Part shown: positions 31,903 through 64,000 of the stretch, in pieces
How the letters are laid out: every line of letters starts with the position of its first letter
Numbering within the stretch: position 1 is the first letter of the stretch
DNA from: Escherichia phage EP75
Strand: one strand, 5' to 3'
Length of the DNA: 64,000 nt
Sequence record: MG748547
The notes under the pieces: generated by a model
The model's input: only the letters and a program-made list of their open reading frames with translations
Databases searched by the model: none
What the model was told of the DNA's origin: nothing
Position numbers and translations under genes: made by a program

Positions 31903-32245
31903 TTGCCATCCATATTTCCCAGACATTTGGTTCACTAACAGTCGCATACTCTTTTTACAACAATTATCTAAAATAAGGGATGAAGGTATCATACATGATT
32001 TAGAAGATACTATCGGTATGGTTAGTTCCGATGAAAGTCGTGGAAAGATGGTGGTCGGAGTATTCATTTCAGATTCAGGTGTGTTGGTACATGAACTGAG
32101 CCATGCGGTAATAAACATATTTGAAGCCGTCAATATGGTAGCTAACACTCACACCACGGAAGCATTTGCCTACCTGTTAGAGAGTCTGTATAACCAATGT
32201 AATCACCATCTGAACTTATGGAGTTCTTTTGATGAGCCGAGATGA
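31877..32245 (+). CDS. hypothetical protein with HExxH motif
   Basis: VLVHELSHAV zinc-metallopeptidase-like motif; start overlaps previous gene by 26 nt, start uncertain. Confidence 0.3.
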   Translation: MRKVLVKLDCHPYFPDIWFTNSRILFLQQLSKIRDEGIIHDLEDTIGMVSSDESRGKMVVGVFISDSGVLVHELSHAVINIFEAVNMVANTHTTEAFAYLLESLYNQCNHHLNLWSSFDEPR

Positions 32246-32514: not shown

Positions 32515-32548
32515 AAGGGCACTAAATATCACGTGCCCTTTATCTTTT
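32515..32548 (+). terminator. intrinsic terminator
   Basis: AAGGGCAC...GTGCCCTT hairpin followed by TATCTTTT. Confidence 0.55.
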
Positions 32549-32606: not shown

Positions 32607-33224
32607 ATGACGATGACAACGTTGAAGGCCATGGCCTTGTCCGTGACCTTTACCATTGCCAGCGGGAGTGTGCACGCTTCCCAAAGTACCACCCAATGTG
32701 ATTATGAGTTTTCTGATCAACAACTTTCAACCATGGCCACAGCCTATCACGTGGGCAAACAACAAGACCTTGGTTTCACCCTCGCCGCAATATCATGGAG
32801 GGAAAGCCGCGCCGGAGAAGATGTTGTATCCATGCGGAATAACCTGAAATCGGCTAATATGGGGGCATTTCAAAATCGCGTCCAAACCGTCGGGAAACGG
32901 GAGGGATGCAAAACACAGAAGTGTTACGCCAATGTTGCGATCAAATTACTGGTCAATCAAGAATATGCTGCCAATGCTGCCCTTGATGAAATGAATTTCT
33001 GGCTAGAATATCATAACCAAAACATCCGCAAATCCCTTTCCTCTTACAATGCTGGGTTCAATCGTAACCAGAAATCCAATTCTTATGCAGCCGACGTCGT
33101 GAAGAAGGCTAAATATCTTCAACGATGTGTGTCTTTCAAAGGCATGGCAATAAACCCAAAGGTCGACCCAGGAGTGATCGCCATGAATAAGCGCACGATT
33201 GAGAAACTCAAGAGGACCAGATAA
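32607..33224 (+). CDS. secreted lytic-transglycosylase-like (SLT) protein
   Basis: Signal peptide; ISWRESRAGEDV (catalytic Glu-Ser), GAFQ and SYNAG resemble SLT-domain ES / GLMQ / AYNAG motifs. Confidence 0.45.
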   Translation: MTMTTLKAMALSVTFTIASGSVHASQSTTQCDYEFSDQQLSTMATAYHVGKQQDLGFTLAAISWRESRAGEDVVSMRNNLKSANMGAFQNRVQTVGKREGCKTQKCYANVAIKLLVNQEYAANAALDEMNFWLEYHNQNIRKSLSSYNAGFNRNQKSNSYAADVVKKAKYLQRCVSFKGMAINPKVDPGVIAMNKRTIEKLKRTR

Positions 33225-33862
33225 TGAATATCACTCCATCTCAGACCGGATATGAACACATAATGGTATTTCTGGCTATTCAGGGCGCGAAGGAAGGGAT
33301 CATTACTTCAGAATATTCCGGTACAATGCGCCTTGCGGATTATGTCGCGCCTGAAGCATTCATCAAGAAATGCATTGACGCTTGGTGCCTTTATGCGCTC
33401 GGCACGTATCCATCACCTCCTGCTGGTGAGTTATTGTTTGCCATACCGACTCCGGCAACTGGTGACACAGACGCGATATTCGCTGATATGCTGTCAAAGG
33501 GTTATCTGACATATGACAGTGCTCACGGCGTGTATGATTTTTCTGCGCTGAATCGTATCTTCGGATTCACCATAACTTCTGAAGCCAATATTCCTGATTA
33601 TGGAATACTAGCATGGGGCGTCGACGGTTTGGGGGCAACATATGCATCTTCGGATGTCGGTCCTGTGTTGATAGACCCAGGGGTGACGATGGAGCAATAC
33701 ATGTCACAATTCCCTCAACATAATGTAACCGGAAGCGATATCATTATTGTCTATCCTGGTTCTAACGCGTTGTCCCGCCTGGTGGACGGCTGGAAGCCTC
33801 AGCTGAAGGACATTGTCTCTGGAATCAGGTTCCATATTCCCGTTGTCAATCCAACACCTTAA
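33224..33862 (+). CDS. hypothetical protein
   Basis: 212-aa ORF, TAATG overlap with upstream gene. Confidence 0.45.
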   Translation: MNITPSQTGYEHIMVFLAIQGAKEGIITSEYSGTMRLADYVAPEAFIKKCIDAWCLYALGTYPSPPAGELLFAIPTPATGDTDAIFADMLSKGYLTYDSAHGVYDFSALNRIFGFTITSEANIPDYGILAWGVDGLGATYASSDVGPVLIDPGVTMEQYMSQFPQHNVTGSDIIIVYPGSNALSRLVDGWKPQLKDIVSGIRFHIPVVNPTP

Positions 33863-34242: not shown

Positions 34243-34320
34243 GAATAAAGGGGTGTTAGCATCCCTTTCTTTTCGCTAATTAAGGGAAACCGCACCGATT
34301 TTATAATCAGGAGAATTACA

Positions 34321-36708
34321 ATGGCCATCCCATCTTTCTTGAACTTTCTTGAAGAGTCTAAACAATTAGACGAAGCGTTTAACTCATCCCCGTATGAATT
34401 GACATTCGGTAAGAAGAACGCTGGTGACATTTTCTTCACATTTGTTGATGAAGACGAAAAAGAATTCCGCATCCAATTTTATACCCCGCAGGGGCTGGGC
34501 AAGAACGTTCGTCAGGTCTTCATAGGCCAGAAACGTGGTTCGACCTATCCAGACGCAATCGGTCGTTTCAAAAACCCAATGCGTGTCATCGCATCCATGA
34601 TCGAAGCAACAAAGCAATTCATGGCGACGCCTTTGGGGAAAACCATTGACGGCTTTGCAATTAACTTCTCCAAGAAAGCATTGGAACGTGGTGTTACCCT
34701 CCTGCCGAAGATCATCCGTCAGTCCGGCCTGAAGCAGAAGCTCAATGTCATGGACCTGACGTATACCCCTATCCCTGATCGTGCATTCGTATGGGTTGTG
34801 CGTAAAGGTAAGGATCCTGCTCAGGTATTCGATGGTCCGAAAATGAAAGGCGTGACTTGGGACGACCCAGACAAAGTCGGCGACGTTCCTGACCAGGCTG
34901 CTCGTGACGCCGCACTACAAGGTGACATAGATGATTTGAGCCAAGCCATAAATGCCGATTCTCGCTGGATTCTGACCAAGGCTGATCATACTCAGCCTAT
35001 GCTGGTCTGGTCTGGTAAAGAACGTGGGCGGACTATTACCGCCAATATCGCACCTCACGCGAATGAACCTGGTGTGTATGCTGGTAGTATCATGAACGAG
35101 AAACGGATCCGCGCTCAATCCCCAGACGCTATTGTACGCCAACTGGGATTACCGCAGATCCCTGTGAATATTCTGAATGATTTCACCAAGCAGTCGTCCA
35201 TCTTCTGGAAAGAGATGACGGGAGATTCTGGAAAAATAGACATGCAGACTTTGCCAAAAACAGGATCTGTGGATGACTTACGAAATCAGGGTTATATTGC
35301 TCGCCTTCTGGGGATTGTAGACACATATGCTCCACAACAGGTCGGTATGTATGCAGGTGAAAAACTAACACGAATCGGCGCGGGCAAATATCGTACTTCG
35401 GGTGGTCTGGACATTCAGGTTTATTTCTGGGGAATTGTCAACGGAAAACTTTCTGTAGAAGTAGTATCAGATTTGTCTGGTCATTACCAACTTATGCTGG
35501 AAGGAGACGTGAAAAACGCCGCTTATGAAATAGTGGGCGCAATCTCCCGTGCAGCCGATTCTCAATTTGCGGGAGAAGTAGAATGCCGTGTGGTTCCTAT
35601 CAATGGTGCCCCATATCCGATTCAAAAAATTTCCCGTTCTCAGGGATATTCTTACGTTGATTGTGGTTCTTTCACATTGAAGATCGCTGACGCTCTGCTG
35701 AATCGGTTTACCTTGGGCAAGGCGGTCAAACTTGATCTGATGAAAGAGTTTCCTCGTACAACATTCAAAGTCCGCTATGATTGGCGTGGAAAAGATACTC
35801 TGTTGGTTCAATCTTCCGACGAGCGTACTATCTTTGGTGAAATCAACACCAATTCCAGTGAAAATGCAGTGATCACTGCAAACATCAAAGTACCAAGCAA
35901 CGCTAAATTTTTTGGTGAAACCGTTCATGGCTTCTCTGTAGCGTGGGATTTCCAGTTCCCTGCTGGTAGCAAGTTGCAAGCCGCAAGATTCGTTACCAAC
36001 GTAACTTACGATTTTGATCGAAATAAAGCCAACATCACCACCATGTTGACTGAAAATGGTCGAAATGTGGTAGACAGCAATGGATATGATATTTCGTTGT
36101 CTGTCAAATCAGTGCAAGATGCATTGGATGAGATTTCTCGACGCCTGAAAGACGCGGCTTCGCAACTGAGCCATCTCAGTTCATCAAACTATAACCCTAA
36201 CAATCTGTTCCTGAATGACATCACTGTCAGTAAATTTGGCGCGATTATGTTCCAAGACAAAGATTTGGCACAGTCCAGGAACCGCACGGCAGTCATTGAT
36301 GCTTTGGCTCGGGCTAAAGATCAGGCTGCTGGAGGTAAGAATGCAGGTGATCTGGCCACCTATGCCGAATCCATTCGTGACAGCGCTCCTAATGGACGAG
36401 ATCTGGATTGGCAGGTATACACAGCCAGTAATGGTACAGTTCTGAATGTTGCTTGGGATATCACTTTCCGTCGCAATACGACCGAAGGAGCATATCGTGA
36501 ATTCAAGGATCAGATCAACCGTGCCAACCAATACCTGCAAACGGTATACAACGACGCGAAATCTAAAGGCTATAATCCTACCGAGCCAAATCTCATGACT
36601 CTTGAACGCGCTCGCCAATCCGACGAATGGGCTATGAGTAATGGTGATAGTGCATACAGTGAATATGAACAATCGCTGGGTGGTAATCTTCAGATTAGTC
36701 TGAAATAA
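34321..36708 (+). CDS. large internal-head-protein-like protein (795 aa)
   Basis: N-terminus MAIPSFLNFLEESKQLDEA resembles a T4 capsid-targeting sequence with LxE cleavage motif; first of three consecutive genes with such N-termini. Confidence 0.45.
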   Translation: MAIPSFLNFLEESKQLDEAFNSSPYELTFGKKNAGDIFFTFVDEDEKEFRIQFYTPQGLGKNVRQVFIGQKRGSTYPDAIGRFKNPMRVIASMIEATKQFMATPLGKTIDGFAINFSKKALERGVTLLPKIIRQSGLKQKLNVMDLTYTPIPDRAFVWVVRKGKDPAQVFDGPKMKGVTWDDPDKVGDVPDQAARDAALQGDIDDLSQAINADSRWILTKADHTQPMLVWSGKERGRTITANIAPHANEPGVYAGSIMNEKRIRAQSPDAIVRQLGLPQIPVNILNDFTKQSSIFWKEMTGDSGKIDMQTLPKTGSVDDLRNQGYIARLLGIVDTYAPQQVGMYAGEKLTRIGAGKYRTSGGLDIQVYFWGIVNGKLSVEVVSDLSGHYQLMLEGDVKNAAYEIVGAISRAADSQFAGEVECRVVPINGAPYPIQKISRSQGYSYVDCGSFTLKIADALLNRFTLGKAVKLDLMKEFPRTTFKVRYDWRGKDTLLVQSSDERTIFGEINTNSSENAVITANIKVPSNAKFFGETVHGFSVAWDFQFPAGSKLQAARFVTNVTYDFDRNKANITTMLTENGRNVVDSNGYDISLSVKSVQDALDEISRRLKDAASQLSHLSSSNYNPNNLFLNDITVSKFGAIMFQDKDLAQSRNRTAVIDALARAKDQAAGGKNAGDLATYAESIRDSAPNGRDLDWQVYTASNGTVLNVAWDITFRRNTTEGAYREFKDQINRANQYLQTVYNDAKSKGYNPTEPNLMTLERARQSDEWAMSNGDSAYSEYEQSLGGNLQISLK

Positions 36709-36759
36709 GTCATAGCCCCTTCGGGGGCTAAATACATCAAAATCCTTAGGAGATCCACG

Positions 36760-37329
36760 ATGAAACCGTTTATAGAATATTTTAAAGAACAAGCTCAACA
36801 ACCGCAAACTCATGGCGGCATACAAGGCAAAAGTGTAACCATCACCAAACAGGCCGACGGAACCCAATGGTGTACTGGTGCCACCGTGACCCAGATCACT
36901 CCAGATAATCAGGCCGACATCTATAATCTGGAATTGACTAACGGCAACACCACCAAAGTAAAACTCACACCGGACCAGGTTCATGCAGTTTCTGTCGGTA
37001 AAGATGTGGTTGCCGTTCATGACGGTTTTGAGTTCTTCTTTGGGAAAGATGCCAGCAAAGGTCAGGTCACAGAATCCTATGCCCAAGAATTGGCGAACAT
37101 GGATAAGATGATCGGTAAAGCGCTGGGCGTTGGCAAATCTCGTAAAAGCGGTCGTACAGAGTTTGAATATTCCGGTATTCCTGGTATTGGAAAACCTGTC
37201 GCAATCGACTTCGGCGGAGAAGACGATCCATATGTAATTGTCACAGTCGCTGGCAAACAGCATGACATCAGTAAGGGAAAAACCCTAGCTGCGGACATTG
37301 CCAAATATATCGGCGTTAAACCTGTCTAA
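36760..37329 (+). CDS. internal-protein-like protein
   Basis: N-terminus MKPFIEYFKEQAQQ resembles the T4 IP capsid-targeting sequence (MKTYQEFIAEA). Confidence 0.45.
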   Translation: MKPFIEYFKEQAQQPQTHGGIQGKSVTITKQADGTQWCTGATVTQITPDNQADIYNLELTNGNTTKVKLTPDQVHAVSVGKDVVAVHDGFEFFFGKDASKGQVTESYAQELANMDKMIGKALGVGKSRKSGRTEFEYSGIPGIGKPVAIDFGGEDDPYVIVTVAGKQHDISKGKTLAADIAKYIGVKPV

Positions 37330-37338
37330 GGAGGTTGT

Positions 37339-37581
37339 ATGAAAGGATTCCAGGACTTCCTCTTGAAGGAAGCAAAGGTTGACCATCGCCGTCTTGGACA
37401 GCAGGGCATGTATGACATCACCGACGTTGGCCGCCCTAACAAAGGCGATCTGATTGATTACTATGATCGCAACGGGGATAAACATCAGGGGAAAGTGAAG
37501 TCTGTGAACGCACAGAACATTATGACCCTGACGAACACCAGCACGGGTGAAACCGTCAAGCTGACTTTGATCAAGCCTTGA
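37339..37581 (+). CDS. internal-protein-like small protein
   Basis: N-terminus MKGFQDFLLKEAK resembles the T4 IP capsid-targeting sequence; basic 80-aa protein. Confidence 0.45.
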   Translation: MKGFQDFLLKEAKVDHRRLGQQGMYDITDVGRPNKGDLIDYYDRNGDKHQGKVKSVNAQNIMTLTNTSTGETVKLTLIKP

Positions 37582-37585
37582 TGAC

Positions 37586-37617
37586 AATCCCCCTAAATAC
37601 AGGGGGATTTCTTTTTC
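37586..37617 (+). terminator. intrinsic terminator
   Basis: ATCCCCC-TAAATAC-AGGGGGAT hairpin followed by TTCTTTTTCT. Confidence 0.6.
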
Positions 37618-37630
37618 TGAGGAAACAATC

Positions 37631-37984
37631 ATGGTTAACGCGAGTATATTCATCAACCGTGGACTGCTTGCTATAGCCCACTCTCATGCCCTCCACTTCG
37701 TTACAACGTCCTATGCCAAGCACAAGGCACTCGGGGAGTTCTACGGGAAACTGGAGGACTTGCTGGACACCTTTACGGAAGCGTATATTGGTGCGGGTGG
37801 TATATACATTCCAGGATTCGAGAACATCAAATTATACAATCCTGAACCGATATCGTATATCAACAGCGTGGTCATCGACGTTAATGGGATCTACAATCAG
37901 TGTGATAGCCATTTACAAAACACGCTTGACGAAATCAAAACTTTGTGCTATCAAACGATTTACAAACTGAAGCAATTGTCCTAA
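37631..37984 (+). CDS. hypothetical protein
   Basis: 117-aa ORF. Confidence 0.4.
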   Translation: MVNASIFINRGLLAIAHSHALHFVTTSYAKHKALGEFYGKLEDLLDTFTEAYIGAGGIYIPGFENIKLYNPEPISYINSVVIDVNGIYNQCDSHLQNTLDEIKTLCYQTIYKLKQLS

Positions 37985-38047: not shown

Positions 38048-38665
38048 ATGGGCAAAATCTTTATACCTTCTCACTCAGAAGGTTGTCAAATCGCTGCAAA
38101 ATTTCTACACAAACAAATGAATTGTGGTGCTGTGTTCGTAGAACCAAATTCATTCGATAATCGTGAATCCCCTGACGCCATCGGGTTCAGACCTGGAGGT
38201 TGTTCTATATTAATGGAAGTTAAAGTCTCCCGCGCCGACTTCCTGACAGACAAAAAGAAACCTCATCGCATGAATCCTTCCATAGGCATGGGAGCATATC
38301 GTTTCTATGTTTGCCCAGCAGATGTTATTAAAATTGAAGACCTCCCTCCCAAGTGGGGTTTGTTGTACTTCACCCCTAGAAAATCTTTGAAGCCCGTTCA
38401 CGTTCCAAATATGCAATATTCCTCTTTGTCTTCACCGGAACATTATGCATCATATTTGTCTAAATCTTTGGACAAAAGAAGACCTACAGATATCCCTCCT
38501 TATCTATTAGGGTACAAACAGATGCTGGAAGAATTCGCCCACTTTGAACGCAATCAGGTTGCGGAACAAAATATTCTGTATGGGGCTTGGCGACAGCTTT
38601 GCATAGCTCAAAGTCGCGGGGTGGATTATAATGTGACAGAAGTGTTCCAGAGGCCAAATATCTAA
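38048..38665 (+). CDS. hypothetical protein, possible PD-(D/E)xK-like nuclease
   Basis: 205 aa; ESPDAIGF ... ILMEVKVS suggests D / ExK nuclease motifs; weak. Confidence 0.35.
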   Translation: MGKIFIPSHSEGCQIAAKFLHKQMNCGAVFVEPNSFDNRESPDAIGFRPGGCSILMEVKVSRADFLTDKKKPHRMNPSIGMGAYRFYVCPADVIKIEDLPPKWGLLYFTPRKSLKPVHVPNMQYSSLSSPEHYASYLSKSLDKRRPTDIPPYLLGYKQMLEEFAHFERNQVAEQNILYGAWRQLCIAQSRGVDYNVTEVFQRPNI

Positions 38666-63686: not shown

Positions 63687-64000
63687 ATGTTACTCGAATC
63701 TGTCGTGCTTTCCCAATTAATCTATAACGAAGAATATCAAAGAAAGATCCAGCCGTATTTGAAAGCCGATTATTTCGATAACGAAGGCGAGAAAATTATA
63801 TTCGGTCTCATTGACCATTACACTTGCGAATATAATGCTCGTCCTTCGGTTGAAGCGTTGTCTATTATGCTGGAAAAGACTTCGCTCAACGAACACGTAT
63901 TTGAACAAGCTATTTCTGCTCTTGAGAATATCAATGACAACACATTCCATCAGGAATGGCTTGTAAAAGAAACAGAAAGTTGGGCGCGGCAGAAAGCTGT
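63687..64000 (+). CDS. 41: replicative DNA helicase (gp41-like), 5' partial, continues beyond window
   Basis: MLLESVVLSQLIYNEEYQRKIQPYLKADYF ... HQEWLVKETESWARQKA aligns with T4 gp41 N-terminus; ORF open to end of window. Confidence 0.85.
   Translation, partial: MLLESVVLSQLIYNEEYQRKIQPYLKADYFDNEGEKIIFGLIDHYTCEYNARPSVEALSIMLEKTSLNEHVFEQAISALENINDNTFHQEWLVKETESWARQKA

Follow-up and report, generated by a model that had tools for sequence, protein, structure and literature searches.

The window analysed here is a stretch of 64,000 nucleotides (nt) from Escherichia phage EP75 (sequence record MG748547; one strand, 5' to 3'), a Kuttervirus (Ackermannviridae, Vi01/CBA120-like), and it corresponds to approximately 32.1–96.1 kb of Escherichia phage vB_EcoA_4HA11 (4HA11) in reverse complement. 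Between positions 34321 and 37581 three open reading frames (ORFs) of the + strand follow one another with intergenic gaps of 51 and 9 nt, encoding proteins of 795, 189, and 80 amino acids (aa). This region was 98.8% identical to that of 4HA11 and 90–98% identical to that of many Salmonella Kuttervirus genomes. The evidence collected for the three genes makes it likely that they are late genes for head-internal proteins, loaded and processed like the internal proteins (IPs) and Alt of phage T4. The genes and the parts of their products are the following; an arrow marks a cleavage position, which for the EP75 proteins is a predicted one, and Alt-N designates the domain related to the N-terminus of T4 Alt.

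34321–36708, + strand: gene of the 795-aa virion protein, starting MAIPSFLNFLEESKQLDEAFNS (phrog_3867); member of the Alt-N-domain family, without ADP-ribosyltransferase domain
34321–34374, + strand (aa 1–18): predicted propeptide of the 795-aa protein, MAIPSFLNFLEESKQLDE, with two [LI]xE sites
34375–34890, + strand (aa 19–190): Alt-N domain, near-invariant in Ackermannviridae, with a putative GNAT-like alpha/beta fold
34891–36705, + strand (aa 191–795): variable mosaic C-terminal region, composed of alpha/beta modules
36760–37329, + strand: gene of the 189-aa virion protein, starting MKPFIEYFKEQ (phrog_4048)
36760–36789, + strand (aa 1–10): putative IP-type capsid-targeting sequence of the 189-aa protein, MKPFIEYFKE↓Q
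37339–37581, + strand: gene of the 80-aa basic virion protein, starting MKGFQDFLLKEA (phrog_5709)
37339–37371, + strand (aa 1–11): putative IP-type capsid-targeting sequence of the 80-aa protein, MKGFQDFLLKE↓A

Each ATG was preceded by a strong Shine-Dalgarno sequence (AGGAG for the 795-aa, TAGGAG for the 189-aa, and TAAGGAGG for the 80-aa protein), so the N-termini of the three proteins are credible; these sites and the ORF coordinates bore out the three consecutive genes, with the N-termini quoted for them, of a preliminary description made from the sequence. No domain was found in any of the three proteins by a Pfam search, and the PHROG to which each of them belongs has no function assigned. 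The labels of the genes in related records are "hypothetical" and "putative structural protein"; "putative tail completion protein" also occurs, a name that has no support.

The N-termini of the two small proteins were compared with the T4 tags read from NC_000866, which are MKTYQEFIAE↓A in ipII and ipIII, MKTFKEFTSTTTPVSTITE↓A in ipI, and MLKEQLIAE↓A in gp22. According to a review (PMC9026906), mutagenesis of the IPIII tag in T4 has assigned targeting to residues 4 and 7 and processing to residues 8 and 10. The tags of the small proteins have the form MKxFx[ED][FY][LF]x(x)E, in which F4, F/Y7, L/F8, and E10, that is, all four positions mapped in T4, were kept. In the family of the 189-aa protein the tag was MKPF[IL][EQ][YF]F[KNT]E↓QA, with MKTFLEFFTE in Klebsiella phage 0507-KN2-1, while in that of the 80-aa protein it was MKGF[QPK]DFL(L)[KA]E↓A, with a form of 10 residues, MKGFPDFLKE↓A, in relatives. 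The predicted mature form of the 80-aa protein has 7.7 kDa and an isoelectric point (pI) of 9.4. We generalised the T4 tags to the pattern MK.[FY].[DE][FY][LIFVM].{1,2}E and used codon-shuffled genomes as the null. The six-frame translation of 4HA11 (157 kb) gave 3 matches, all at annotated starts and 2 of them in the genes studied here, against a null mean of 0.005; in 50 kb of T4 the pattern found ipII and ipIII only. Judged by these pattern counts, the resemblance to the T4 tags is beyond chance.

Among the loci compared, the N-terminal motifs of the 795- and 189-aa proteins were kept in Kuttervirus, Taipeivirus, Limestonevirus, and Agtrevirus, and that of the 80-aa protein in Kuttervirus, Limestonevirus, and Agtrevirus, there being no Taipeivirus copy among those loci; a separate search found an unannotated copy of the 80-aa gene, 85% identical, in the Taipeivirus phage 0507-KN2-1. 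Within the phage collection the 189-aa protein was detected only in Ackermannviridae. A copy of the 80-aa gene, whose protein is 100% identical to that of Kuttervirus, was also seen in record OR844944.1 ("Enterococcus phage Efm 3-10," 38.5 kb) together with a match to the 795-aa gene (66% identical); this record is probably mislabelled or contaminated. It was also possible to see tag-bearing genes of 4HA11 outside the window. The third match of the pattern was a 65-aa protein (MKTFGEFLTE..., L006 37549–37746) encoded between tRNA genes, and a near-match was a 76-aa protein (MKGFQDFLED..., L004 6219–6449) encoded just after the gene of a putative tail protein, which the LIMEstone1 proteomics suggests to be Hoc-like. 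Counting these two, the genome has at least 5 tag-bearing genes.

The leader of the 795-aa protein is of another kind. Its two sites are LEE, which ends at E12 (nt 34356), and LDE, which ends at E18 (nt 34374), and a helix was predicted by AlphaFold2 at residues 6–19. In the comparison with 27 homologues, F6, F9, Q15, D17, and E18 were invariant and L7 and E12 almost so; residues 1–192 as a whole were near-invariant. A profile of the family N-domain was aligned by hhalign to one built from nine Alt N-termini of Straboviridae (T4 and L016–L023), with Prob 96.2 and E 2.4e-9 over 162 collinear columns. After trimming the leader and the junction motif the E value was 7.5e-7, and the controls gave 0.45 (reversed) and 0.18 (unrelated profile). 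This profile comparison shows homology between residues 19–190 of the 795-aa protein and the T4 Alt N-terminal domain. The annotation of Alt in X15811, "6 amino acids cleaved off," corresponds to MELITE↓LFDE, and in the alignment LITE↓L of Alt falls on QLDE↓AFNS of the 795-aa protein. At this aligned site [LI]-x-E was present in 9/9 Straboviridae Alt homologues, some of which have a leader with two sites, such as MLDMLTESQLNE↓AFES, in close likeness to ...FLEESKQLDE↓AFNS.

The family was then defined by an exhaustive HMMER search with residues 1–205, another homologue search with the N-domain, alone or as an alignment, having given only 5–7 short proteins. It comprised 92 representative clusters, nearly all of 300–1681 aa, with the domain at the extreme N-terminus in all of them. 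The lineages in which the Alt-N domain was seen include Ackermannviridae and Straboviridae, myoviruses of Vibrio and Aeromonas, and a large number of metagenomic relatives. Almost all members had [LIFVM]-x-E right before the start of the domain, [AS][FL][ND][ST]xPY, after leaders of 5–54 residues. At the junction [LIFV]-x-E↓[AS] the P1 residue was E in 70 of the 81 sequences scored automatically, and across 62 aligned diverse members only Met1 and E18 were invariant. T4 Alt carries PF03496, the ADP-ribosyltransferase domain, at residues 374–614; in a Pfam scan this domain was found in 6 of 59 diverse members, the five identified individually scoring over the Pfam curated threshold, and T4 Alt matched the ADP-ribosyltransferase domains of these members directly. 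Two further Pfam matches came from single members, one being to the domain of anthrax lethal factor (ATLF, E 3.3e-5) and the other to DinI (E 2.6e-4), which hints at C-terminal domains other than ADP-ribosyltransferases in the family. On metagenomic contig SRR30568138_25046 (L024 616–3968), from an uncultured T4-like phage, two tandem Alt-N genes lie beside homologues of gp23, gp22, gp21, and gp20; one product, of 580 aa (P0189), has the ADP-ribosyltransferase domain and the other, of 516 aa, is without it. The homologue of Aeromonas phage TSW001 adjoins DNA ligase, like alt in T4.

Beyond residue 192 the homologues of the 795-aa protein were mosaic, with insertions of modules of ~100 aa and breakpoints near aa 192, 300, and 653. 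The preliminary description had supposed that this protein could carry an enzymatic effector in the manner of Alt. The part of the supposition that held is the relation of the N-terminal domain to Alt; domain searches found no ADP-ribosyltransferase domain (PF03496) in the 795-aa protein, and its C-terminal 600 residues gave no match to known enzyme folds. The variability of this region and the varied C-termini of family members are consistent with action at the interface of phage and host, by analogy to the T4 internal proteins.

Head machinery of the T4 type is encoded by 4HA11, namely a gp21-type prohead protease (PF03420, S77; E 2.6e-28) and a gp22-type scaffold (PF25623, T4_CASP; E 2.8e-45), whose N-terminus is MKPELQKLFE↓G. 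The preliminary description had named absence of the proteins from purified virions as what would refute it, and such an absence was not borne out: published liquid chromatography-tandem mass spectrometry (LC-MS/MS) of CsCl-purified virions of phage Sajous1 detected orthologues of all three proteins. With the gene numbering checked against the Sajous1 record, gp214, the orthologue of the 795-aa protein, had 196 spectra and was among the five best-represented proteins; gp215 (189 aa) had 32 and gp216 (80 aa) had 20. The proteomics of LIMEstone1 described a cluster of structural proteins without assigned function from ORF78 to ORF85. Its ORF80, an "unknown structural protein" of 20.28 kDa, fits the 189-aa protein by size and annotation label, the orthologue in the "barely" record being labelled "unknown structural protein" as well, and gene order, together with the label in related records, makes ORF81 the probable counterpart of the 795-aa protein. 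The homologue in Vi01 bears the name "phage associated protein." Taken together, four independent lines of evidence, the kept tag residues, the protease and scaffold genes, the detection in virions, and the homology of the Alt-N domain support the packaging of the three proteins into the head that had been suggested from their N-termini.

Around the genes two hairpins were detected.

34247–34273, + strand: terminator-like hairpin with T-run, read from the sequence, between an upstream 98-aa ORF and the 795-aa gene
36714–36734, + strand: GC hairpin GCCCC-TTCG-GGGGC, upstream of the 189-aa gene and overlapping CTAAATA (36728–36734)

The SPTD1 record annotates the motif CTAAATA as "Kuttervirus late gene promoter" before the 189-aa gene and before three virion-protein genes nearby. 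Its overall count was 7, which is not above chance; four copies, at 32522, 33109, 36728, and 37593 of the window, lie just upstream of genes of virion proteins. The T4 late promoter TATAAATA was also considered and was rejected, being not enriched and having no copy near the three genes.

Several neighbours of the three genes, all on the + strand, were also characterized. Upstream, 32607–33224 encodes a 205-aa protein whose N-terminus resembles a signal peptide and whose match to the SLT lytic transglycosylase domain is borderline (21.6 bits, with a threshold of 21.3); CTAAATA stands at 32522, and the Sajous1 orthologue, gp211, had 31 spectra in the purified virions. The label "RegB" given to relatives of this protein was discarded, having no support from homology. 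The next gene, 33224–33862, encodes a 212-aa acidic protein (pI 4.5) with DUF7270 and has CTAAATA at 33109, within the upstream gene; its label in the "barely" record follows the LIMEstone "unknown structural protein." Directly 3' of the three genes, 37631–37984 encodes a 117-aa DUF5856 protein, without a targeting tag and with its own late-promoter motif at 37593. Its PHROG is "starvation-inducible transcriptional regulator," Dps/ferritin-like; in Sajous1 the orthologue, gp217, belongs to the virion proteins, and the "barely" label "unknown structural protein" implies a counterpart in LIMEstone1. The 205-aa protein of 38048–38665 is called "putative adenylosuccinate synthase" in phage Guerrero, a label that looks unsupported, given that it matched only PHROGs without assigned function and, weakly, a "DNA repair protein" PHROG. 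At the end of the window (~63976–64000) the final 25 nt are present twice in 4HA11 (positions 31951 and 32268, 317 bp apart), which points to a short duplicated stretch within the primase-helicase region of the 4HA11 genome.

Considering these data, a mechanism parallel to that of T4 can be proposed, in which core binding, the positions of cleavage, the location in the head interior, ejection, and function are inferred by analogy. The genes would be expressed late, and during prohead assembly the N-terminal tags, of the IP-type MKxFx[ED][FY][LF]xE on the 189- and 80-aa proteins and of the Alt-type, a leader followed by the Alt-N domain, on the 795-aa protein, would bind to the core of gp22-type scaffold. 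The gp21-type (S77) prohead protease would then cut at [LIF]-x-E, on the C-terminal side of the glutamate; cuts are predicted after E10 in the 189-aa protein, after E11 in the 80-aa protein, and after E12 and/or E18 in the 795-aa protein. This cleavage would free mature proteins of ~19, 7.7, and 86 kDa within the head, which would remain in the virion, in the DNA-filled head, and most likely be ejected with the DNA on infection. The 795-aa protein would thus be a relative of Alt whose ADP-ribosyltransferase domain has been swapped for a fast-evolving mosaic region of ~600 aa, which is probably a non-enzymatic or novel effector, acting against host defence or for takeover.

Several observations weigh against this proposal. 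The head module lies outside the window and was seen only in the 98.8%-identical relative 4HA11, and no exact CTAAATA was found upstream of the 795-aa gene. Neither BLASTP nor HMMER recovered the homology to Alt, and hhalign gave weak results when only one Alt sequence was used (E 0.13 and 0.014); the comparison between profiles alone was significant. Some members of the family have leaders of just 5–7 residues, which leave no room for a targeting peptide of its own, so the conserved [LI]xE-AFNS junction could have a structural role and not be a cleavage site. The preliminary description had also likened the N-termini to the T4 internal-protein tag and to LxE protease sites; the tags and the four mapped positions agreed with this, while the predicted cut site of the 189-aa protein, FKE, has F and not L/I at P3, and its predicted mature form (19 kDa, pI 6.5) is not basic, unlike the T4 internal proteins. 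The tag pattern was devised with both sets of sequences already seen, by which its significance is somewhat inflated, although the margin is still large. Direct evidence of cleavage was not obtained: the peptides QAQQPQTHGG and AFNSAPYELTFGK, and SDAPGSVNSTVGK of the capsid protein, were sought in the Sajous1 supplement, in a portion of the peptide table which holds neither the three proteins nor the capsid protein. Mass spectrometry of virions cannot separate a head from a tail location either, and the S117 tailocin paper (PMC10670071) has no proteomics placing the proteins in the head or in the tail.

An external location of the 795-aa protein has also to be weighed, as a part for tail completion, the neck, a fibre, or capsid decoration, anchored by its N-terminus and exposing a variable C-terminus, with the small proteins as minor structural components. 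The abundance of the protein in virions agrees with this arrangement, as do the names "putative tail completion protein" or "tail fiber protein" of homologues in some records and the layout of a conserved N-terminus followed by a mosaic C-terminus, which is typical of receptor-binding proteins. However, the name "tail completion protein" had no Pfam match behind it, phrog_3867 has no assigned function, and the N-domain proved homologous instead to that of Alt, a head-internal protein, and we regard the external location as improbable. The resemblance of the tags could also be convergent or coincidental, the three being virion proteins that are neither targeted by way of the scaffold nor cut by the protease and that bind, for example, directly to DNA or to the portal. 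The motifs are short (10–12 residues), the pattern was defined post hoc, the P3 residue of the 189-aa site is the one mentioned above, and measurements of cleavage in Ackermannviridae phages were not found in the literature searched. Against such a coincidence stand the occurrence of the pattern solely at gene starts, with the low number expected, its conservation across genera and at the four mapped positions, the cognate protease and scaffold genes in 4HA11, and the exact alignment of the Alt cleavage site, which leave it very improbable. We give the least credit to the Alt-N domain being itself the real effector, as a diverged acyltransferase of the GNAT type with the C-terminal region as an accessory. 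Its fold appears GNAT-like, yet the domain of the 795-aa protein had no GNAT Pfam match and does not conform to the canonical Q/RxxGxG/A acetyl-CoA loop; in its place stands GQKRGST, with an additional loop of ~10 residues after it, and Alt homologues do not keep Q70.

Returning to head-internal proteins of the T4 type, the comparison with the known systems shows both common features and differences. The 189- and 80-aa proteins share with T4 IPI, IPII, and IPIII the architecture of the tag, MK-x-[FY]-x-[ED]-[FY]-[LIF]-x-E followed by A/Q, and similar sizes (80 versus 95–100 aa and 189 versus 193 aa); in both phages they are products of late genes, present in the virion and mutually unrelated in their mature sequences. 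In contrast, no resemblance of the mature parts to T4 internal proteins could be detected, T4 belongs to Straboviridae and EP75 to Ackermannviridae, and processing and injection are only predicted for the Kuttervirus proteins. In the same way, the 795-aa protein shares with Alt the homologous N-domain of ~170 aa, a short leader ending in [LI]-x-E, a large size, abundance in the virion, and tandem paralogues in relatives, whereas its C-terminal 600 aa consist of unrelated modules and its gene, unlike alt in T4, does not adjoin DNA ligase. In phiKZ and SPN3US many head-internal ejection proteins are cut after glutamate by a prohead protease related to that of T4, and their sites share only the P1 glutamate and few determinants (PMC9026906), while the EP75 proteins have the classical T4 [LI]-x-E; no sequence relationship of the three proteins to those ejection proteins was found. 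No paper in the searchable literature links capsid targeting to Ackermannviridae, and in a 2024 review of this family nothing is said of proteins that are internal, ejected, or injected. Taking into account this state of the literature, we consider the three genes a known type in another family, that is, internal proteins of the T4 type plus a relative of Alt with a different C-terminal region.

A broader interpretation, which we put forward tentatively, as possible but short of an even chance, is that Alt-N is a dedicated, widely shared carrier module, formed by the GNAT-like fold and the cleaved leader, with which several lineages of T4-superfamily phages load interchangeable effectors into the head for delivery with the DNA. 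Such a module would be the counterpart, packaged in the head, of polymorphic toxin or MuF systems. The C-terminal 600 aa of the Kuttervirus protein would then represent a new class of injected effector, probably the outcome of an arms race between phage and host defences, and the IP-type tags of the small proteins would be portable packaging signals. A comparable organization has been described for MuF-fused effectors and polyvalent proteins (Iyer et al. 2017, PMC5512222; 2022, PMC9503650), in which a conserved head-associated carrier is combined with interchangeable effectors, often ADP-ribosyltransferases, which are delivered with the DNA. The carrier there is MuF or the portal, whereas in the family of the 795-aa protein it would be the Alt-N domain; the passages retrieved from those two papers discuss MuF, polyvalent carriers, and the enzyme domain of Alt and do not describe the N-terminal domain of Alt as a carrier.

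If the proposal is true, loading by T4-type capsid targeting and prohead protease reaches Ackermannviridae, whose phages are in wide use for biocontrol and diagnostics of Salmonella, E. coli O157, and Dickeya. It offers a concrete role for a cluster of abundant virion proteins without assigned function that the proteomics papers had left unexplained. The N-terminal domain of T4 Alt, which is not annotated by Pfam, becomes defined as a conserved module with varied C-termini, and as such would give a simple route to candidate injected effectors in metagenomes. The tags of 10 residues, in turn, suggest themselves for packaging foreign proteins into Kuttervirus heads and may serve engineered protein delivery.

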